A stretch of DNA of 21,024 bases from Candidatus Micrarchaeota archaeon (lineage in GTDB: Archaea; Iainarchaeota; Iainarchaeia; Iainarchaeales; JAGVWC01). Under the pieces are notes generated by a model. The model did not search any database. It worked only from the letters and a program-made list of their open reading frames with translations, and was not told the DNA's origin. The translations under genes and the position numbers were made by a program. The stretch is taken from assembly GCA_043803815.1 (NCBI GenBank), contig JAZDJR010000007.1, positions 1 through 21,024 on the forward strand, in the 5' to 3' direction. Positions 35-21,024 of this stretch are shown here, piece by piece (position 1 is the stretch's first letter; each line of letters begins with the position of its first letter).

Positions 35-131
35 CAGCGCGAGTACAACAAAACGCCACACTCAGGAATAAAATACCAAACACCCAACAAAATCTTTCAA
101 GAAAAACGAAAAAGCGGAGTCATATCCGCTG

Positions 132-2282
132 TCACGTAACAATTAACTTCTCTTTTTTTACAACCCATTCGCCCGTGCATTCGTTTTGCATTTTGGTTTC
201 GCTTTTTTGAACCACAATTTTTTTCTTAAAAAGCGGGCAGTCCAAAACCAAAGTTTCGTATTCCCCGCCTTCGCCGGCCATATTAATCCCGAATTTTTCG
301 TGCAGTTTTTGGAGTTCTAAAATAGTGCGCTCCGTAAGTGTTTTTCCAAGCCAGGTTTTGTCCAAACCAGCGCAGGCGATGGAAGAAAACGTTACTTCGA
401 ATTTTTTTCGCACGAGTTCTTTGAGTTCGTGTTCCTGGTTTTTGTGCCAGAGCGGGGAATATATTTTGAGGCCGAGTTCGTCGCAGATTTTTTCGATTCT
501 TTCGCGCTGGTAATTGGAAAAGAGCGCTCCGTTGACGATTCCGTCGAGTGAGAACCGTTTTTGGGCGGTTTGAATCGCTTTTTTTAAGTCTTTTAATTCG
601 ATTTCCTTGTTGCCGCGGGTTTTTTGAAGGACTAAAGGAATTTCGCTTGCTTTGCTCTGAAGTTTAACGAGTTTCACGTTAGGGGTGTGAAACATGTACG
701 AATCCTTGTTTTGGCTTTGGATGGTAATCAAGGCGTCAATTGTATAGTGCTTACTTTTTTGGATGAGCGCCGCGTACCAGCCGTCTTTTCCACCGCTGAC
801 AAGCGCGCCCAATCGTTGGTTTTGGGTTTGAAAAAACGTGTTCAAATAATCGGATTTGGTGCGGTAACCGTGTTCTTTGGCGAGTTTTTCAATAGCTTTG
901 TCCGCGTTGGAACCGTATTGCGCCGCGCGCTTTGGCTGGTTGTACAGTTCTTCGGGCAACCCCCATTTTTTGGCCAGCATTCGAAGAAGCCCCTTGGTTT
1001 GGTTAGGATTTTGTTTGAAGCGAAACGGCAACCGGACCGCCAAATCAACGACGATTGGGTCGTAGTAGGGTACGCGCAGCTCGACTTGGTTTTGCATGGA
1101 AATCGTGTCGTCGCGGTACTGGTCGTTTTCATAGGCCTTGATGACATACGACAGGGATTCGCGATTGGGGTTCTGGCTTTGCTGCTGTCGCAAATAGCCG
1201 CCGAACAGGCCGTCTGAACCCTGGCCGCTGAAAGCAATTTTGATTTTGAGTTCCAAAAGTTTTTTTGTTGCCAAAAAAAACGGCACGCCAACGCTGACTT
1301 TGGTCGGGTCCGCGGTTTCAATGGTCGAACAAACGGTTTTCAGTATTTCTGGGAGTTCTTTCAAAGAGGCGCTGGCTACGTGCAGGGAAAGCTCGAGTTT
1401 TTTGGCCGCGTTTTGGGCTTGCTTTAAGTCTTTGGGTTCCAAAAAGTGTTCATCCAAAATGGCCCCGTGCACGAGAACGGGTTTTTTTCCAAATCGAAGG
1501 CAGGCCGCGGTTAAGAGTACGGAGTCGATTCCTCCGGAAAACAACAATCCGAATTCTTTTTCCGGAATGCGTTTTCCAACCGCGGATAGCAGGCGTTTTT
1601 CAAGTTCGCGGGTGAGTTCTTCGTCGCTTTTTTCCAGTGTTGGAGTAATGGAAAAAAACGGGCGTTTTTCAAATTTCAAAGTATTTTTTTTGGTGTCAAA
1701 AAACAGGAAGTGACGGGGGTTGAGTTCGGTGGCCTTGGCAAAGCCCATTGCGTGCAAGGCTTTTGCTTCGGAGGCGAATGCAAAGCGTTTTTTTTCATGG
1801 GAATACCAGACCGGTTTGATGCCCACAATGTCGCGACCCAAGAGCACGGTGTGTCCGCGCCAATAGGAAAACGCGAAGTCGCCGTCAAGTTCTTCCAAAA
1901 CCTTTGGCCACTCTTTGGATTTGGTGTTTTCCAAGAGCAAAAACAACGTTTCGGAATCGTTTTGGGGAATTTTTTTGAATTTGGATTTGTAATGCTCCGT
2001 TAATTCTTTCCAATTGTAAATTTCGGTATTGGAAACGAGTTTTCCTTTTCCGACAAACGGCTGTGGACAAAACGAGACTACGGAGTGCAGGCAGTGGCCG
2101 ACGACATTGGCGGTTTTTGGAAAAACCTTTTTTGAAATTCCGGCAAAGTTTTTCGAATCAAGTTTGGTGTTCTCAGTTGCAATCGAGTAATGGTCCGCTC
2201 CGCGGTTTTGGATAGTCTGCATTCCCGCCAAAAGAATTTTCGCCGCGTTGGAGTCATTGAACAAGCCGATGATTCCGCACAT
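132..2282 (-). CDS. Fusion of glutamine-hydrolysing asparagine synthetase-like protein (AsnB: Ntn-GATase + synthetase) and diphthine--ammonia ligase (Dph6)
   Basis: N-terminal MCGIIG (Cys2 nucleophile), QNRGAD, NTEIYN, RDIVGIKP, LFSGGIDS, SGQGSDGLFGGY, ELRVPY (AsnB). The last ~230 aa have SGGKDG, SYMFHTPN, YQRERIEKIC, SPLW, AGEGGEYET (Dph6/DUF71 PP-loop). Confidence 0.88.
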   Translation of the reverse strand: MCGIIGLFNDSNAAKILLAGMQTIQNRGADHYSIATENTKLDSKNFAGISKKVFPKTANVVGHCLHSVVSFCPQPFVGKGKLVSNTEIYNWKELTEHYKSKFKKIPQNDSETLFLLLENTKSKEWPKVLEELDGDFAFSYWRGHTVLLGRDIVGIKPVWYSHEKKRFAFASEAKALHAMGFAKATELNPRHFLFFDTKKNTLKFEKRPFFSITPTLEKSDEELTRELEKRLLSAVGKRIPEKEFGLLFSGGIDSVLLTAACLRFGKKPVLVHGAILDEHFLEPKDLKQAQNAAKKLELSLHVASASLKELPEILKTVCSTIETADPTKVSVGVPFFLATKKLLELKIKIAFSGQGSDGLFGGYLRQQQSQNPNRESLSYVIKAYENDQYRDDTISMQNQVELRVPYYDPIVVDLAVRLPFRFKQNPNQTKGLLRMLAKKWGLPEELYNQPKRAAQYGSNADKAIEKLAKEHGYRTKSDYLNTFFQTQNQRLGALVSGGKDGWYAALIQKSKHYTIDALITIQSQNKDSYMFHTPNVKLVKLQSKASEIPLVLQKTRGNKEIELKDLKKAIQTAQKRFSLDGIVNGALFSNYQRERIEKICDELGLKIYSPLWHKNQEHELKELVRKKFEVTFSSIACAGLDKTWLGKTLTERTILELQKLHEKFGINMAGEGGEYETLVLDCPLFKKKIVVQKSETKMQNECTGEWVVKKEKLIVT

Positions 2283-2283
2283 T

Positions 2284-2484
2284 TTAAAATTTCCTTTTTT
2301 GGGGCGTTGTTTTGATTAGATAAATGGTTCGGGTGTTTGCGTTTACTTTTATCGGGCTATTAGTTATCAGGCGATTATCTTTGAGATTGCTGATGACGTT
2401 TTTGTTTTTTGACCCAGCCATTCGCATGCAGGCATCCGCGTATTGAATGCTGTATTCGCGGGAAAAAAGCCGGGTGTAGGTCAT
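2284..2484 (-). pseudogene. 66-aa ORF, possible internally deleted remnant of a PEP-utilising (mobile-domain) family gene
   Basis: Fills the gap between dus and asnB-dph6 exactly. C-terminal half (GSKNKNVISNLKDNRL...IKVNANTRTIYLIK) resembles the G-x-K-x-A-T-x-x-LKDG-x-x-V-x-VDA-x-x-G-x-V end of PEP-utiliser mobile domains, without the catalytic His motif. Confidence 0.3.
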
Positions 2485-2494
2485 AATTCTAAAA

Positions 2495-3403
2495 TTATGG
2501 AAACAATGTGTTTATTGAATTTGTGCAGTCTTCAATCGAGCGGACTTTTTCGAGTTTTTTCACCAAATCCGCGCTTTTGTTCGCGCTTGCAAACCGAATG
2601 GCCTGCTGCTTGATACGGCCGCTATGGGTAAAACCAAGTTCTTGGCAAAGGACAAGGTAGCGCTTTAGGCCGTCGATTTTTGAAATTCCTTTTTTGCCCG
2701 ATAATTCCGCAAAAATTCCGGGGTTTCCAATGGCACTGCGTGCAAGCATTACCGCTTCACACCCGGTTTTTTCAAAAATCAGTTCCAGGCTTTCCTTGTC
2801 GCGCACTCCGCCATTATTGATAACGGGAATCCCGATGGATTCGCGAATCAGCCTAACCGCATCAAAATTGATGATTCCGGTGTGGAATTGCTTTGGGGTT
2901 CGCGCGTGGATGGTAATCGCGTCGCAGCCGTTTTTTTCAAGGATTTTGGCGATTTCAACCGCGGTCTCGACTTTGTACGGAACCCGCATTTTGGCGGTTA
3001 TGGGCTTATCGGTTGCTTTGCGCATGGCACTTATGATTTCGCCGATTTTGACAGGATCGGACAATAACGCCGAACCGACCCCTTGGCTGGTGGCTTTTCG
3101 AACCGGACACCCCAAATTCAGGTCAAACAGGTCGGCTGAAGGGTCTGCATTTTGGACTGCCAAAGCCGCGGTTTTGGGGTTATTGGCAGCGATTTGAACC
3201 CCTAAAGGCCGGTCGGATTTGTGGGCTTTGGTCTCTTCCACTATTTTGGAGATTTTTCTGGCCAATGCCTCGGCGCTAATCATTTCGGTGAAAGCCAAGG
3301 CCGCGCCTTGTTCCCGGCAAAGCACCCTAAAAGCAGGGTCCGTGACCCGAACCATGGGAGCGAGCCAGAGCCTACCTGAAATCGATAAAGAACCCAGTTT
3401 CAT
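2495..3403 (-). CDS. dus: tRNA-dihydrouridine synthase (Dus family, DusB-like)
   Basis: LAPM, TEMISA, VQIA, DLNLGCP (catalytic Cys), TAKMR, IHART, NGGV, MLARSAIGNP motifs. Confidence 0.92.
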   Translation of the reverse strand: MKLGSLSISGRLWLAPMVRVTDPAFRVLCREQGAALAFTEMISAEALARKISKIVEETKAHKSDRPLGVQIAANNPKTAALAVQNADPSADLFDLNLGCPVRKATSQGVGSALLSDPVKIGEIISAMRKATDKPITAKMRVPYKVETAVEIAKILEKNGCDAITIHARTPKQFHTGIINFDAVRLIRESIGIPVINNGGVRDKESLELIFEKTGCEAVMLARSAIGNPGIFAELSGKKGISKIDGLKRYLVLCQELGFTHSGRIKQQAIRFASANKSADLVKKLEKVRSIEDCTNSINTLFP

Positions 3404-6526: not shown

Positions 6527-7426
6527 ATGGCTGAAAACCCCGCTCCGCAGGCGAATAAACCCGTTGCAATGCACCCAAACGAACTTTCAGCAGAAAACCA
6601 AGCGGTGTTGGAATCGTTTCGCCAGGAGCTTGTGATTGCGGGTTATTCTCCCCGCACGATTAAGACGTATCTGTTTTTGGTAAAAGATTTTCTGGTTTTT
6701 TTGAAAAAAAATCCGAGAGATGCCAACCGTTCGGACCTGGTCGGTTTTATGGTGCAGAAAAAAGAGACCGGCAAGGTCTCACCGACGACTTTGGCGTTGG
6801 TTCATTGCGCTTTGACGTTTTTTTTCAAAAACTTTTTGCACTTGAGTTTGATGGAAGAAATTAAGTCGCCGAAAAAAGACAAGAAATTGCCGTCAGTCTT
6901 GACCAAGGACGAGGTAAAAGAACTGATTGCTGCGGTCAAGCGCGGAAGAAACCGATTGCTGGTGGAATTTTTATATTCAACAGGTGTTCGCGTAAGCGAA
7001 GCCGTTCATATGAAAGCCGATGACTTGGATTTGACTCAAAAAATCGGGCGCGTAAAAAGCGGAAAAGGAAACAAGGACCGCGTGATAATTTTGTCCAAAA
7101 ACTGGTGCAAGGACGCCAAAAAATACCTGAAAAAGAAAAAAATCAAAAGCGAATATATGTTTTCCAAGCGAACAACCAAAGACCCGATTTCAACGGATAC
7201 CGTTCAGCGGATTATCCGCGAAGCCTGCGAAAAAGCAGGCATTGCAAAAGAAGTTACACCACATACCTTACGACATAGCTACGCAACGCATCTGCTCGAG
7301 TCGGGGGAAAACATCCGCGCGATACAGGAATTGCTGGGTCATGCATCCCTGGCTACCACCCAGATTTACACGCACATCAGTACTGATACTTTGAAAAAAA
7401 TCAAGAATCCATTTGACCAGCTGTGA
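6527..7426 (+). CDS. xerA: Tyrosine recombinase, XerA/XerC-D family
   Basis: N-terminal SAM-like domain (YSPRTIKTY), LPSVLT, and the full catalytic set: TGVRVSE (R), KGNKDR (K), PHTLRHSYATHLLE (HxxR), LLGH, TTQIYTH (Y). Confidence 0.9.
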   Translation: MAENPAPQANKPVAMHPNELSAENQAVLESFRQELVIAGYSPRTIKTYLFLVKDFLVFLKKNPRDANRSDLVGFMVQKKETGKVSPTTLALVHCALTFFFKNFLHLSLMEEIKSPKKDKKLPSVLTKDEVKELIAAVKRGRNRLLVEFLYSTGVRVSEAVHMKADDLDLTQKIGRVKSGKGNKDRVIILSKNWCKDAKKYLKKKKIKSEYMFSKRTTKDPISTDTVQRIIREACEKAGIAKEVTPHTLRHSYATHLLESGENIRAIQELLGHASLATTQIYTHISTDTLKKIKNPFDQL

Positions 7427-12075: not shown

Positions 12076-12175
12076 TTGCTGAATCGGTTTTTTGGTTTAT
12101 TCCTGTTTTCTTGGGCGTTTCACCGGCAATGACGGGCTTGCAAAGCACCTTAACTGCAAAATTCGATTTGTTTTA

Positions 12176-12955
12176 ATGGTTCAAACGACTTATGGCGCAA
12201 TATCAGACTCGGAATTGCAAGAGCCGGTATTTTCACGTTTGCCAAGCGTTCCTTTGCCGGTACTTCATGAAAATTGTCCGACTGAATTGAATCCTGAACT
12301 GGCGTATTTTGTCGGATACTTTTTTGGCGACGGCGGACTTAAAGATGTAGAAAAATCGTTTCAAAAGACCGACCATCGAGAATACAAATTAATTATTGCC
12401 GACGAATTTGAATTGCAAATGAAACTTATTCAGCGGTTGTACGGTCGACTGTTTGGCGTTATTCCACCAATTCGGTATGAACGAATAGAAAAAGGCGAAA
12501 GAACGTTGTATATTAACCCGACTTCAAAGCGCGTTTATCTTTTTTTGACAACTGTTTTTGAACTTCCAAAGGGTTCCAAAACGTCCGATTTGCACATTCC
12601 AAAAGTTATTTGGTTCGCACCTCGGGAACTTCAAGCGTGGTTTTTGCGCGGTTTGTTTGATGCGGATGGGGACACGAGAGCGGTTGAAGCGGGTTTTCGT
12701 TCCGCACCGCGTGTGAAGTTGCGGATGAAATGCATTTCGTTTGTGCAGGAAGTGAAAATGCTTTTTGAGCAAGTGTTTAACATGCACGTAAACGGCCCCT
12801 ATTTTGATAAAAATAATGCGTCGGCGTACATTCAAATAGAACGATTTTCGGATATTTGTGAATTATCCAAAAATGTGCTATTTTTGCATCCAATTAAGCG
12901 CTGGCGGCTTACAAAGACTGCGGATTTTCTCTTGTTAAAGTCCAATGCTTTATAA
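12176..12955 (+). CDS. Free-standing two-motif LAGLIDADG (DOD-type) endonuclease family protein
   Basis: ELAYFVGYFFGDGGL and WFLRGLFDADG motifs plus PKGSK...IPK; no intein splicing termini. ATG at 12176 preferred over TTG at 12092. Confidence 0.88.
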   Translation: MVQTTYGAISDSELQEPVFSRLPSVPLPVLHENCPTELNPELAYFVGYFFGDGGLKDVEKSFQKTDHREYKLIIADEFELQMKLIQRLYGRLFGVIPPIRYERIEKGERTLYINPTSKRVYLFLTTVFELPKGSKTSDLHIPKVIWFAPRELQAWFLRGLFDADGDTRAVEAGFRSAPRVKLRMKCISFVQEVKMLFEQVFNMHVNGPYFDKNNASAYIQIERFSDICELSKNVLFLHPIKRWRLTKTADFLLLKSNAL

Positions 12956-12984
12956 ATATTCTTTGTAAGATATGTGTACTAATT

Positions 12985-13078
12985 GGGACTGTAGCTTAGC
13001 TGGGAAAGCATCCGGCTGAAGTGGCATTATCGTGCCTAAGTGACCGGAGGATCGGGAGTTCAAGTCTCCCCAGTCCCA
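12985..13078 (+). tRNA. tRNA-Phe (GAA) with a 21-nt intron at canonical 37/38 (13022-13042)
   Basis: Acceptor GGGACTG/CAGTCCC-A; anticodon arm TCCGG-CTGAAG[intron]A-CCGGA; intron hairpin GGCAT/GTGCC; BHB with one G-A mismatch in the central helix; TATA box TTTATAAATA at 12949-12958. Confidence 0.93.
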
Positions 13079-13117
13079 CTTCTTTTTTTATTTTTTTCAG
13101 AATCAGAAAATAAAATC

Positions 13118-16554: not shown

Positions 16555-18408
16555 CTATTCTCGTTTGGCGCTTTTGACGCCTTTTATTTTTTTGATTTCG
16601 TTGATGGTATTTTCGAGTTGTTTTGGGTTTTTTGTTTTGACGTTAAATTCGCATTGGACGCCGTTGTTTTCGGTTTTGGTTGTGGTGCTCGTGATTTTGT
16701 ATTTGTGATGGGAAAGCAGGGTAAGGATTTCCGCAATCGTGCTCGGGTTTTGGTGGGTGTTGACGCTGATAGTGGCGTTGAATTCGCCTTTGGGGAATTG
16801 GTCGTTGGTCAGCGCGATTTTTTTGGTTTCGGGCACCTGTTTCATGTTTTCGCAGTCTGTGCGGTGAATCGTTATTTTTCGTTTGGTTGTTTTGTAGCCG
16901 ATGACGTCGTCGCCGGGCAATGGGCTGCAACATTTGGCCAGCAGGATATGCCGCTGGCTTTTTTTGGATAATTGGGCTGTTTTGTTTTTTTTCGGGGGTT
17001 TGGCGGATTTGGATTCGCGTTGGAGAAAAAGCGCGGCGCGGATTTTTTGTTTGGCCTTTTCGGTTTTGACAAAGGATAGCCATTGTCGTTTGGGGGTTTG
17101 ATGGGGGCTGGTGGTGATTTCGATGACGTCTCCTGTTTCCAGTTCGTGGTTTAGGGGAACCAGTTTTCCGTTGACTTTGGATTTTTCGCAGGTTTGCCCG
17201 AGCTGGGTGTGGACCGCGAATGCAAAATCAAGGCAGGTGGCTCCGCGGGGTAGCTGAATCAGTTCATATTTTGGGCTTAGCGCCAGAATCTGATTTTTTT
17301 CAAATTGGATGGAAAGAGTCTGGATGAGATCGCGGTTTTTTTCCTGCCCCATCCATTCGGTGATTTGTTTGGCAACGGATAAGCCTGGGTCGAATTGGGG
17401 GTCTTTGGCGAATTGTTTGTATTGCCAGTGTGCGGCCAGGCCGTTTTCGGCTTCTTTGTGCATGGCCCATGTTCGTACCTGGACTTCGTAGGGGTTTTTG
17501 TTCCATTTTACGTCGATGTGCAGGGATTGGTAGCCTGATTTTTTGGGTTTGGCGATGTAATCGGTGTAGCTTCCGGGGATTTCGTCGAATTCGTTTTGGA
17601 TGGCGCTTGCGATTTGGTAGCATTCGGGAATCGAATTGCAGATGATGCGGCCGGCGATTGAGTCGTTAATTTCGTCGAGTTTTTTATTTTGTTCCTGCAT
17701 TTTTTTGTGGATTCGGTACAGGTTTTTTACCCTGGAAAAAACAAGCGCTTTGAAGTTGTGTTTGTTCAGAATTTTTTTGAGCTGGGTTTCGAATTCTTTT
17801 GCTTTTTCCTGTCGTTGGTGGCGTTTTTCGTTGAGCTGGCGTTTGAGCTGCGAATAGGTTTCGGGTTCGAGTTGTTTAAATGCCAAGTCTTCCAGTTCCC
17901 ATCGGAACTGTTGCAGCCCCAGTTTGGCGCTTAATGGCACTAGCACGTTTAGCGCGATTTTGGCTTTTTCCTGGTTGGCGGGAGTTACGGCGGCAAATCG
18001 CAGTTCGATGAGTGCGCGGCCGAGTTGAATAACAATGGCACGAATATCATGCGCGGTTGCAATGAGCAATTTGGAAAGCGTTTCGCTGGGAACAATATCG
18101 GCATTTTTTTGGAGAACCGCGGTGATTTTTATGGTTGCTTTGGCCAAGTCGATGATTTGCGGGTCGAATTGGCGCACTAATGAGTCGTCCAAAACGGGTT
18201 TGATGAGTGAGGCGCAAAGGGTTTCTTCGCCAAAGCCGTTTTCAAGCAATAATCCTGCGGTGTCCAGTGCGAGCTGGTAGCTGGCCGGTGTAATGGCGGG
18301 AGAATCGAGTTTTTGCAGGGCCAGTTCAAGAGTTGCCGTGTGGCTATCGGGCAATTGTTTTTTGAACCTACTTTTAAGTTCCGTAGCGGTATAGTGTTCG
18401 TATTGCAT
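16555..18408 (-). CDS. Long RelA/SpoT homologue ((p)ppGpp synthetase): degenerate HD, SYNTH, TGS, ZFD and ACT domains
   Basis: WELEDLAF, SRVKNLYRIHKKM, DYIAKPKKSGYQSLH, EVQVRTWAMHKEAENGLAAHWQYK (SYNTH); LPRGATCLDFAFAVHT (TGS); AKCCSPLPGD...IHRTDC (ZFD); C-terminal ACT. ATG at 18408 preferred. Confidence 0.93.
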   Translation of the reverse strand: MQYEHYTATELKSRFKKQLPDSHTATLELALQKLDSPAITPASYQLALDTAGLLLENGFGEETLCASLIKPVLDDSLVRQFDPQIIDLAKATIKITAVLQKNADIVPSETLSKLLIATAHDIRAIVIQLGRALIELRFAAVTPANQEKAKIALNVLVPLSAKLGLQQFRWELEDLAFKQLEPETYSQLKRQLNEKRHQRQEKAKEFETQLKKILNKHNFKALVFSRVKNLYRIHKKMQEQNKKLDEINDSIAGRIICNSIPECYQIASAIQNEFDEIPGSYTDYIAKPKKSGYQSLHIDVKWNKNPYEVQVRTWAMHKEAENGLAAHWQYKQFAKDPQFDPGLSVAKQITEWMGQEKNRDLIQTLSIQFEKNQILALSPKYELIQLPRGATCLDFAFAVHTQLGQTCEKSKVNGKLVPLNHELETGDVIEITTSPHQTPKRQWLSFVKTEKAKQKIRAALFLQRESKSAKPPKKNKTAQLSKKSQRHILLAKCCSPLPGDDVIGYKTTKRKITIHRTDCENMKQVPETKKIALTNDQFPKGEFNATISVNTHQNPSTIAEILTLLSHHKYKITSTTTKTENNGVQCEFNVKTKNPKQLENTINEIKKIKGVKSAKRE

Positions 18409-18511
18409 TATGAAACTACAAACCGAAAACATATTTAGGCTTTGGATTGGGTTTTTGGTTTTTTGCCTATCGGTGTTTAAATACTGTAGTTGCTTTTTTA
18501 TTTTGTTGATT
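18409..18511. promoter_or_regulatory. Divergent promoter region between the RSH and CBS-HPF genes
   Basis: 103-bp AT-rich gap; TTTAAATA at 18476-18483 (+) and CTAAATAT near 18431-18438 (-), each about 25-30 nt before an ATG. Confidence 0.55.
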
Positions 18512-19633: not shown

Positions 19634-19777
19634 ATCCGGATTTTCAAAGCGCCGTTTATTTTTGTACGGGGTGTTTTTTTGCTCTGCTTGTTGGTTCTAT
19701 TTTTTTGGTTTGGCGAATTCGGATTTGCCCTGCTTAATTTGGTTCCGGCAGATTCGAAAAAGAATTGAATAAAGAGT

Positions 19778-20047
19778 GTGGGCTCGCCTTTGAGTGGCAA
19801 GCCGTTCGTATTATCGGTTGGTTCTTGAAGGGTTCTCGCGCCTGCGTTTTTCAAAGCACTCAAAACAATAGGTACCGTTGCTTTCTTCCAAATCTGGCGG
19901 GTTGGCTACTGGTTTGGGCCTTTGAGGGCAAGCGGTCAACGTTCCGGTCAAGACCGATAATACCAATGGTCGCGCCTCAAAAGCTTGGATCCTCCCTAAA
20001 GCAGGTTTGGAGTGACAGGGCACTGCTACCGCCCCGACCTAGCCCAC
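19778..20047 (-). ncRNA. ffs: Signal recognition particle RNA (7S RNA)
   Basis: Terminal helix GTGGGCT/AGCCCAC; Alu-domain start GGGCTAGGTCGGGGC...CCCTGTCACTCC with AGCAG/CTGCT loop-loop complementarity; helix 5 GTATTATCGGT/ACCGATAATAC; helix 8 CCAACCCGCCAGATTTGGAAGAAAGCAACGG; T-rich tail. Confidence 0.92.
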
Positions 20048-20049
20048 GA
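19998..20049. repeat. Direct repeat copy 1 (5' end of the SRP RNA gene)
   Basis: 51 of 52 bp identical to 20728-20779. Confidence 0.95.
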
Positions 20050-20095
20050 AGAAGAATCGGGTGCAAAGGTTTTTTAGCGGTACCGAAACGGTTTT

Positions 20096-20461
20096 TTAGC
20101 GCACAAATTCTACGTTGGATAGTTCTTTGAATGCTTTGTCTCCGGTCAAGAATTTTATTTTTTTGGCATTGGCGATTTGATAACCGATTGCATCGATATA
20201 GGAAATGTTTTGTTTTTTGTGTTCAAAGCGGAATTGCGCGGCTTTTTTGATGGTATCGTCGTCGATTTCAACGGTTTTGGACAAAAGGCCGTTATAATAT
20301 TCTTCCGCTTGGTCGGCCCGTTCTTCCAATAGTTTGGCATAATAAAGTTCCAGCAGGTTAAGGCGCGTAGTTATGAATTCGTATTCCGTGAAATATTTTT
20401 CATAATGCGAATTTCCCTTAAAAAATTCGATTAACGCGTATGTATCGGCAAAAAACCACAC
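20096..20461 (-). CDS. vapC: PIN-domain toxin (VapC-like)
   Basis: FFADTYALIE, NLLELYY, ISYIDAIGY, FLTGDKAF acidic PIN motifs. Confidence 0.92.
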   Translation of the reverse strand: MWFFADTYALIEFFKGNSHYEKYFTEYEFITTRLNLLELYYAKLLEERADQAEEYYNGLLSKTVEIDDDTIKKAAQFRFEHKKQNISYIDAIGYQIANAKKIKFLTGDKAFKELSNVEFVR

Positions 20462-20462
20462 C

Positions 20463-20675
20463 TTAATCCCACCCTTTTTTTAGTTCGTCTTTGATTTGCT
20501 GCGCGGTTTTTTTGGTTTTCCATGTTCCGAACAGTTTTGACAAAGGAGTTACTTTTCGAACCGAAATTATAAGCCGGTCGCTGGGCTTGATTTTTTCCCG
20601 TTCGACAACTTCCTGCGAAATCGTCACGCCGACCGAGTTTCCCCACTTGCGTGCCGTTACTACCATATCCGTCAT
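20463..20675 (-). CDS. vapB: AbrB/MazE-type antitoxin (VapB-like)
   Basis: ARKWGNSVGVTISQEVVEREKIKPSD swapped-hairpin motif; GGTGGT SD before the ATG at 20675; directly upstream of the PIN gene. Confidence 0.9.
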   Translation of the reverse strand: MTDMVVTARKWGNSVGVTISQEVVEREKIKPSDRLIISVRKVTPLSKLFGTWKTKKTAQQIKDELKKGWD

Positions 20676-20684
20676 TATACCACC

Positions 20685-20710
20685 AATATAATTATATTCT
20701 AAGTTATATT
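20685..20710. promoter_or_regulatory. Probable vapBC operator
   Basis: Perfect 14-bp palindrome AATATAATTATATT (20685-20698) plus a third TTATATT half-site at 20704. Confidence 0.55.
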
Positions 20711-20727
20711 TATGGCTTTGGTGTTTA

Positions 20728-20779
20728 AAAGCGGGTTTGGAGTGACAGGGCACTGCTACCGCCCCGACCTAGCCCACGA
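20728..20779. repeat. Direct repeat copy 2 (truncated SRP RNA 5'/Alu fragment)
   Basis: 51 of 52 bp identical to 19998-20049; looser similarity continues about 30 bp into the upstream promoter region. Confidence 0.95.
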
Positions 20780-20914
20780 GAGAATTGGTTACAAAAGGGT
20801 TTTTAGGGGTTGCAAATTGGTAAAACTAATTGAAATCAGAACTTGAATTTTGGAAGTTTGTATGTCGAACCTTTAGATGTGGAAAATGCTGTGTTGCATG
20901 ATTCTGAAGTTTTT

Positions 20915-20934
20915 CGGGTTTTCTGAAAAACCCG
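20915..20934. terminator. Hairpin after the partial minus-strand ORF at the window end
   Basis: CGGGTTTT-CTGA-AAAACCCG, 6 bp from the TAA. Confidence 0.4.
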
Positions 20935-20940
20935 GTGCAG

Positions 20941-21024
20941 TTATGCGTTTTCTCCGTATCTTTTGACTTTTTGGTACGCCCAGAACTTGATGGCTGCCTC
21001 TTGCGTCATGCCTAACTCACTGGT
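20941..21024 (-). CDS. 3' end of an unidentified gene running off the window
   Basis: Open frame ...TSELGMTQEAAIKFWAYQKVKRYGENA* followed by a hairpin; too short to assign. Confidence 0.4.
   Translation of the reverse strand, partial: TSELGMTQEAAIKFWAYQKVKRYGENA

Follow-up and report, generated by a model that had tools for sequence, protein, structure and literature searches.

Why does the 5' end of a gene for signal recognition particle (SRP) RNA, together with promoter-like sequence, occur a second time 730 bp away from the working gene, with nothing but a vapBC toxin-antitoxin (TA) operon in between? This situation is found near one end of the stretch of DNA analysed here (the window), which is an entire contig of 21,024 bp from the genome (1.08 Mb, 86% complete) of an archaeon that we refer to as Iainarchaeota-like DPANN. 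We think that the locus is probably best explained as an archaeal TA instance of insertion with long target duplication, here at the SRP RNA gene. That is, a self-contained vapBC addiction module of about 630 bp, which comprises its own TATA box, a palindromic operator, vapB and the PIN-domain toxin gene vapC and ends at the vapC stop, would have inserted directly upstream of the SRP RNA gene. The insertion would have duplicated about 83-97 bp of the target, i.e., the SRP promoter and the first 52 nt of the RNA. The promoter-like stretch U1 and the repeat copy A, both beside the gene body, would keep the SRP RNA gene complete and with its own promoter; U2 and copy B would be left upstream of vapB as an orphan by-product. 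The coordinates of all parts are collected in Table 1.

Table 1. Features of the SRP RNA/vapBC locus and its border in the window
Feature	Coordinates	Strand	Evidence and remarks
Complete archaeal SRP RNA gene	19776..20049, 5' end 20049	-	Rfam RF01857, 113.6 bits vs. gathering score 96.5; model 1-317, untruncated
Repeat copy A (proximal), SRP RNA nt 1-52	19998..20049	-	Helix 2/3 and 5' half of helix 4; part of the working gene
U1, promoter-like, before the complete SRP RNA	20050..20095	-	TATA-like CTAAAAAACC about 21-30 nt ahead of the RNA start
vapC, PIN-domain toxin, 121 aa	20096..20461	-	GTG start, TAA stop 20096-20098; Pfam PF01850, 37.2 bits vs. cut-off 23.6
vapB, AbrB/MazE-type antitoxin, 70 aa	20463..20675	-	Stop 1 nt before vapC start; Pfam MazE_antitoxin; homologues precede vapC
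Cassette control region, 52 nt between orphan and vapB	20676..20727	-	Conserved in 18/18 aligned cassettes from other loci
GGTGGT Shine-Dalgarno	20679-20684	-	Within control region
Palindrome TATAATTATA, putative operator	20687-20696	-	Within control region
TATA-like CATAAATATAAC of the cassette	about 20703-20714	-	Within control region
Repeat copy B (distal), orphan SRP RNA nt 1-52	20728..20779	-	Own covariance model, 49.5 bits, E 7.6e-10
U2, promoter-like, before the orphan	20780..20825	-	TATA-like CTAAAAACCC, same distance from the RNA start as in U1
Multi-copy insertion sequence (IS)-like repeat, end portion	20887..21024	.	Contig stops inside; adjoins the cassette, not part of the cassette

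The repeat had been pointed out in an earlier note made from the letters of the window alone, and a repeat search reproduces it exactly (52 nt, 51/52 identical, spacing of 730 bp). When the SRP RNA is compared with its own locus, the orphan copy is matched with an E-value of 1.2e-23 (blastn). The repeated 52 nt are nt 1-52 of the SRP RNA, i.e., the lower-numbered copy starts the working gene, which is the only full SRP RNA copy of the genome, and the higher-numbered copy is the orphan. The note called the downstream copy complete and let the upstream copy stop within the Alu domain; this is right in the sense of transcription (minus strand), where the orphan lies upstream of the complete gene, and wrong when read in plus coordinates, where the lower-numbered copy is the complete one.

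Structurally, the repeat boundary falls inside the helix 4 loop, and the orphan is left without the 3' strand of helix 4. The sole mismatch between A and B sits in the orphan (plus coordinate 20733; U47->C, i.e., CUGCU->CCGCU in RNA sense) and disrupts the pairing of the helix 3 loop with the helix 4 loop, just as the note had stated for AGCAG/CTGCT. This is borne out by 30 aligned SRP RNAs from the order: the disrupted pair is a standard pair in 30/30 RNAs, the 5-pair loop-loop helix shows standard pairs in 150/150 cells, and 3/5 of its pairs covary. For the complete gene, both the AGCAG/CUGCU loop-loop pairing of the Alu domain and a full-length RF01857 match above the gathering score hold.

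The looser similarity that the note had described past the repeat is present as well, namely between U1 and U2, for which 31/44 aligned columns are identical, plus gaps (about 70% alike). U1 starts immediately beyond the vapC stop codon, and an A/T-rich box at the equivalent distance before the SRP RNA was read off the alignment by eye in 29/29 relatives. Ahead of the SRP RNA, the TATA-like CGCTAAAAAACC (RNA sense) is found twice, 22 nt apart (window 20065-20101). Since the upstream one of these copies provides the last codon and the stop of vapC, the right-hand cassette junction may lie inside the final vapC codon.

An assembly artefact is unlikely as the source of the duplication, because the two copies are not identical and because contigs of a relative show the same order of SRP RNA, vapC and vapB. 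This relative was found among public sequencing runs that share words with the window, i.e., two DNA runs (0.08 and 0.05 of the words); no RNA run was listed. Run X1 (groundwater, Logan contigs) holds an organism that is about 92% identical, and one of its contigs (919 nt) spans SRP RNA, U1, vapC and vapB (19778-20697). The SRP-vapC-vapB arrangement therefore exists in a second natural population. Another X1 contig shows the region upstream of vapB followed by 24 nt of SRP-like, diverged letters; the changes in this orphan stretch hit both strands of a helix and resemble a different SRP allele. Run X2 covers the SRP RNA only (19778-20049), followed by about 40 nt unlike the window, and stops short of the vapC position such that it is silent on an empty site.

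Between the two repeat copies there are indeed, as had been noted, only vapB, vapC and the 52-nt promoter/operator stretch, and both genes are located on the same strand as the SRP RNA. The insert thus contains no integrase or other mobility gene, while lying between direct repeats of more than 30 bp (52-nt core, 83-97-nt repeat). The VapC protein is a PIN toxin that stays outside the NCBIfam VapC equivalog (22.1 bits vs. 80). Its acidic residues D6, E38, D90 and D108, which we take to be the catalytic positions of the PIN active site, are invariant across 8 homologues; a sequence search of the PDB found no relative. For VapB, the matches to PF04014 MazE_antitoxin (E 0.0026, 18.1 bits, below the cut-off of 24.7) and to TIGR02609 doc_partner (32.2 bits, below the cut-off of 55.9) are both located on the N-terminal swapped-hairpin region, and a VapB homologue directly precedes vapC in 48/52 related loci. 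Given that the vapB stop (20463) adjoins the vapC start (20461), the gene order with a small upstream antitoxin gene looks like an arrangement for translational coupling.

Is this cassette particular to the SRP RNA gene? VapC homologues were found in 73/196 genomes of the order with a patchy distribution and often in several copies each; the best match to the VapC of the window (75%) comes from another family. In an alignment of 18 cassettes, conservation reaches from about 45-50 nt before vapB to the vapC stop codon, and nothing is conserved outside. Conservation is confined to this span of about 0.63 kb, which makes the cassette a discrete unit. Its conserved left end reads AAA..TTAAATATAACT-N5-TATAATTATATT-GTG-TATAAT (18 cassettes). 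Two other kinds of unit were considered and dropped, namely a retro-copy of the vapBC mRNA, as the cassette includes its own promoter, and an element of the miniature inverted-repeat transposable type, as by eye neither terminal inverted repeats nor conserved ends beyond the functional unit are present.

We also checked whether other cassettes are flanked by direct repeats. For this, 52 loci were oriented from vapB to vapC, and for each of them the 450 nt ahead of vapB were aligned with the 450 nt that follow the vapC stop. Four loci for which no vapB was found as well as L040, whose contig starts within vapB, were dropped, which leaves 47 valid loci. As controls served 377 mismatched pairs, in which the two flanks came from different loci (upstream from one, downstream from the other; maximum score 31). 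Direct matches above all controls are observed for 9/47 loci. Grouped by VapC identity to the window, 25 loci reach at least 50% and contain all 9 cases, and the 22 loci below 50% contain none.

Seven of the loci (window, G110:C57, G096:C65, G056:C130, G041:C57, G105:C12, G158:C39) share one geometry: repeats of 21-120 nt are spaced 670-773 bp apart, with 49-85 nt between the end of the upstream copy and the vapB start, and the start of the downstream copy is located at -4 to +39 nt relative to the vapC stop. An eighth locus (G056:C162), which holds the cassette most closely related to that of the window, shows the same geometry with a 25-nt repeat, the score of which is just below the control maximum. 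The repeats themselves differ in sequence locus by locus. At the other loci they correspond to the 3' ends of alaS, of a methionyl-tRNA synthetase (MetRS)-like gene and of a metallophosphoesterase-like gene or to a TATA-like stretch before purA. An Rfam scan of 11 cassette loci found no adjoining RNA gene. As a target, the SRP RNA gene is unusual and was probably hit incidentally. A functional link between VapC and the SRP RNA was dropped as an explanation on the grounds that the cassette occupies many unrelated genes. That is, the suggestion of the note that a PIN RNase is tied to this RNA finds no support, and the linkage looks incidental.

One of the repeat-bearing loci is more complex. L090 (G105:C12:25599-31099) contains within positions 71-3215 three alaS 3' ends, i.e., the resident one, an 88% copy and a decayed 80% copy, as well as two or three copies of a methyltransferase (MTase) 3' end. 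The duplicated ends bracket small genes (149 and 168 aa) and vapBC, which gives an array of inserts, each with duplicated gene ends.

For two targets, empty and filled alleles can be compared. In one genus, the MTase gene and alaS are convergent, and their tblastn matches end 31 nt (G080) or 41 nt (G124) apart, while the gap is filled by vapBC in G118, G130 and G105. In another family, a phosphoesterase has the tail '...YYFGKL.EL..' and no vapBC within 1.5 kb in 8/10 loci. In the remaining two (G096 and G060, one genus), the phosphoesterase has another short tail, which extends into the TATA box of the cassette, and the orphan phosphoesterase end located after vapC retains the ancestral 'GKL.EL' tail. 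The empty and filled alleles thus identify the cassette as an insertion and the duplicated segment as sequence of the target.

With regard to the SRP site itself, only distant relatives could be compared. A covariance model trained on the SRP 5' domains of 30 relatives scores both copies of the window (67.8 and 49.5 bits). Among 151 genomes of the order (133 with a match), the genome of the window is the only one with two copies, i.e., the 132 others are single; in a largely overlapping sample of 151 genomes of the phylum (138 with a match), it is again the sole two-copy case. No second piece of the own SRP RNA is present at the SRP loci of 29 relatives (about 1.5 kb on each side). A tblastn search of these 29 loci with the CBS, RelA, VapB and VapC proteins of the window and with the 27-aa fragment at its end finds partial CBS/RelA synteny and no VapB or VapC homologue. 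As a side observation, the Rfam SRP model matches only two short pieces (model 10-64 and 184-228) at G008:C98:3579-3761, for which the 5'-domain model scores 75 bits; this SRP RNA may be unusually reduced or divergent.

Metagenome and viral contigs yielded no closer relative. An exact 32-nt pattern from the repeat has 0 matches in JGI metagenome contigs and 0 in IMG/VR viral contigs. The neighbouring CBS-domain protein hits one distant locus only among the JGI metagenome contigs, which is uninformative on the empty site, and the VapC alignment finds no relative among viral contigs.

The note had proposed that a minimal TA cassette without integrase went into the SRP RNA gene site and left the repeats as attL/attR-like scars. 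The part on the inserted minimal cassette stands, given that the unit occurs at many loci with repeats of their own and that two empty sites were found. The att part would require that a trans-acting tyrosine recombinase (e.g., the chromosomal XerA or a lost integrase) joined an attP containing the SRP 5' end to the SRP gene, as for elements integrated in tRNA genes. Some features agree with such site-specific integration: the 3' homology boundary is sharp and located in the helix 4 loop, flanked by stem arms, which is like the sublocations used within tRNA genes; the identity is highest at the junction-side end of the repeat in the window, L039, L043 and L058; a XerA gene is located 13 kb away; and a phage att site in the bacterial SRP RNA gene ffs is on record (PMC12540744). 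On the other hand, the same cassette family is found at no fewer than seven, i.e., at least 7, unrelated targets with repeats of 21-120 nt, which vary in sequence and length by target. No common core is seen by eye at the repeat junctions (no motif scan was run), and the loci inspected show no integrase gene between the repeats. Furthermore, XerA is a housekeeping enzyme with a site of its own and without a tie to these junctions. We consider site-specific integration improbable.

How the insertion with long target duplication came by its second copy can be approached via the differences between the copies. First, the two parts of the window repeat have diverged unevenly: A and B differ in 1/52 positions compared to 13/44 for U1 and U2 (2% vs. 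30%, Fisher p 1.9e-4). If the orphan had drifted at half the rate of the promoter part, the probability of at most one change in 52 positions is about 0.002. Second, duplicated gene ends differ mainly synonymously. The alaS orphan end in G105 shows 20 synonymous and 1 non-synonymous difference to the resident gene within 57 aligned codons. The pairs that flank vapBC show synonymous to non-synonymous ratios of 3:3 (G096), 3:0 (G056), 1:2 (G130) and 6:5 (G105), i.e., 13:10 in total, which is to be compared with a rough neutral expectation of about 28% synonymous changes (binomial p 0.004). Because of these two observations, one of the copies may be foreign-derived; for the window, the uneven divergence suggests that one repeat copy arrived together with the cassette. 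We read the differences such that at least some of the duplications seem to join a resident gene end with the homologous end from a related lineage, with later drift superimposed. Within the mechanism proposed above, one copy would accordingly have come from a related lineage along with the cassette, and recombination in the shared segment (Campbell-like or homology-anchored) would have joined it to the resident sequence; the addictive nature of the TA pair would explain why the cassette was retained. For the window, the chief alternative is that gene conversion acted on the RNA part only.

A true target-site duplication would work without a foreign copy, i.e., both copies would stem from resident sequence by fill-in of widely staggered breaks, and the differences would be of later date. 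This interpretation has been applied to RM (restriction-modification) units, for which both repeats match the empty site almost equally (PMC2853133). It could account for copies that are 91-95% alike over their full length (L041, L043, L051) and for one orphan that has decayed as drift predicts. It does not fit well to the 2% vs. 30% split of the window repeat nor to the synonymous excess between resident and orphan gene ends, which speaks for divergence while both were coding; gene conversion of the RNA part could rescue it. All in all, we judge that this is not a probable origin of the repeats.

Could the duplication have been kept for a function instead? In the second model of the note, the duplicated SRP promoter plus Alu fragment acts as a leader of the TA operon, i.e., the orphan promoter and the 52-nt fragment would be retained to drive or regulate vapBC (as leader, as decoy or by read-through into the SRP RNA). 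The orphan has a TATA-like box at the right distance, all parts are on one strand, the 52 nt are much better kept than the promoter part, and the interval between orphan and vapB is free of oligo-T runs longer than 4. However, cassettes at other loci come with the same promoter and operator of their own but without any SRP sequence, and the orphan, in which the 3' strand of helix 4 is missing, breaks the pair kept in all of the aligned SRP RNAs. The predicted fold of the 120-nt leader from orphan to vapB is no better than that of shuffled sequences (z -0.37), and the matching stretch is poorly conserved in run X1. At each of its locations, the cassette is equipped with a conserved promoter and operator of its own, and TATA box, operator and Shine-Dalgarno are present also at loci without any SRP piece, such that vapBC does not require a leader derived from the SRP gene. 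The second model is thus neither needed nor favoured, and we regard a functional duplication as very unlikely. Transcription from the orphan promoter may nevertheless read through into vapBC and further into the SRP RNA gene.

Several observations weigh against our explanation of the locus as an insertion with long target duplication. An empty SRP site in a close relative was not found, nor was a same-genus genome or a matching metagenome contig. For this reason the insertion at the SRP site is concluded from distant relatives and from the analogy with the other loci, and the comparison of relatives proposed in the note yielded empty sites at two other cassette targets only. The 20:1 alaS case flanks another small insert instead of vapBC, the pairs that do flank vapBC are mixed, and one vapBC-flanking orphan has decayed, with a frameshift and two stops. 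Gene conversion or a function of the orphan could also explain why the 52-nt part is 98% identical. The 24 nt equivalent to the orphan in X1 are about 79% like the orphan of the window (own count from loose letters), a divergence that cannot be reconciled with a recent event, as the working SRP 5' end of X1 is not visible. A significant flanking repeat is absent in 16/25 of the closer cassettes, i.e., the signature is common and not universal. Finally, no near-identical cassettes are seen at different sites (maximum of 66% within one genome), and the mobility of the cassette is therefore to be called evolutionary rather than demonstrably current.

If the repeat results from insertion with long target duplication, the process would be reversible: by recombining with each other, the 52-nt copies would release the cassette and leave one gene behind. 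It is possible that the cassette leaves as the 730-bp circle mentioned in the note. A more far-reaching picture, which we put forward tentatively and hold to be rather less probable than its negation, is that vapBC units of about 0.63 kb are autonomous 'hitch-hiking' cassettes of DPANN archaea. They would travel as circles or fragments that carry a piece of their last gene-end neighbour, re-enter by recombination in that piece and exit by recombination between the repeats; the SRP promoter and 5' end of the window would have been replaced by a foreign copy on this occasion. If true, this would be a recombinase-free life cycle, as has been proposed but never shown for RM units.

How does the locus relate to known systems? 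Insertion with long target duplication was described for RM units (Nobusato et al. 2000, as cited by Furuta, Abe & Kobayashi 2010, PMC2853133). According to the latter paper, these insertions have long direct repeats of more than 30 bp (e.g., 46 bp) that are single in insert-free genomes, their mechanism is given as unknown, and no archaeal case survived the screen reported there. Both systems have in common a small addiction-type unit without mobility gene, long repeats of variable length and the frequent overlap with the 3' end of a neighbour. Here, in contrast, the cargo is a type II TA pair, the host is an archaeon and one of the targets is the promoter and 5' end of a structural RNA gene. 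In addition, some copy pairs look as if they had diverged in separate lineages rather than derived from one resident sequence.

Integrative elements of archaea, e.g., the thaumarchaeal integrated mobile genetic elements (iMGEs), are found at tRNA and tmRNA genes and at the ends of protein genes, with integration at 5'-distal parts of RNA genes being known and rare (Krupovic et al. 2019, PMC6563490). The likeness extends to the duplicated gene end with a target that stays whole and to tandem accretion at one site, which compares to the three alaS ends in G105. The iMGEs, however, carry an integrase or span kilobases with element genes, whereas here a vapBC unit of 0.63 kb is found at many targets. 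The SRP RNA gene as a target has a bacterial counterpart in phage phiEf11 of Enterococcus faecalis, the att site of which is located in ffs (4.5S SRP RNA) and was reported only in 2025 (PMC12540744). Both cases share an identical segment on both sides of the insert. phiEf11 is a temperate phage of bacteria with its own integrase and a 27-nt core; the window, in contrast, is archaeal, has no integrase in the insert and shows a duplicated 5' end plus promoter.

In the literature that was searched, archaeal vapBC cassettes with long target duplications are not described, and a term search of Makarova et al. 2009 (PMC2701414) gives no hit for direct repeat, flanked, integron or transposition.

Compared with the TA cassettes of integrons, the vapBC unit is alike in being a small promoter-bearing TA cassette and different in having neither an attC-like element nor a common flank. 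Chromosomal integrons such as the Vibrio superintegron contain TA pairs as small promoter-bearing mobile cassettes that stabilise their surroundings; integron cassettes have attC sites and need IntI acting at attI.

The mobility of TA systems is mostly credited to plasmids, phages, transposons and integrons. In the present case the mobile unit seems to be nothing more than a vapBC pair. Archaea and TA systems would thereby join the bacterial RM systems for which insertion with long target duplication is known. The roughly ten repeat-bearing loci together with the two sites with empty alleles form a data set for attacking the mechanism. They also offer an explanation of why small DPANN genomes contain orphan pieces of essential genes, among them SRP RNA and alaS, which annotators should not mistake for assembly errors. 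As the working gene is intact, the case probably makes no difference to SRP biology.

Besides the cassette, the window ends in an IS-like repeat, which starts 108 nt from the orphan SRP copy. It came to light when the genome was searched for a contig with another junction: the last 138 nt recur with 99-100% identity, each time next to unrelated sequence, where 8 further contigs of this genome end. Only 27 codons of the open reading frame (ORF) of the repeat are inside the window. The archaeal origin of the contig is evident from marker genes (TFIIE-alpha, aTrm56, diphthamide synthase, a KaiC-type ATPase and an intron-bearing tRNA). The above-mentioned recombinase gene (6527-7426, plus strand, 13 kb from the cassette) is of the archaeal XerA type (NF040815, an NCBIfam equivalog, 277 bits vs. 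cut-off 220). A long-form RelA/SpoT homologue (RSH) with HD, RelA_SpoT, TGS and ACT domains is encoded at 16555-18432 (minus strand); long RSH enzymes are uncommon among archaea. Within 12092-13079, a LAGLIDADG-domain ORF (12092-12955) directly precedes a 95-nt tRNA gene, which Rfam scores as tRNA and which ARAGORN cannot assign; it is probably intron-bearing. Finally, a 716-aa fusion protein (132-2282, minus strand) combines a glutamine amidotransferase/asparagine-synthase module with a diphthamide-synthase (Dph6-like) domain.

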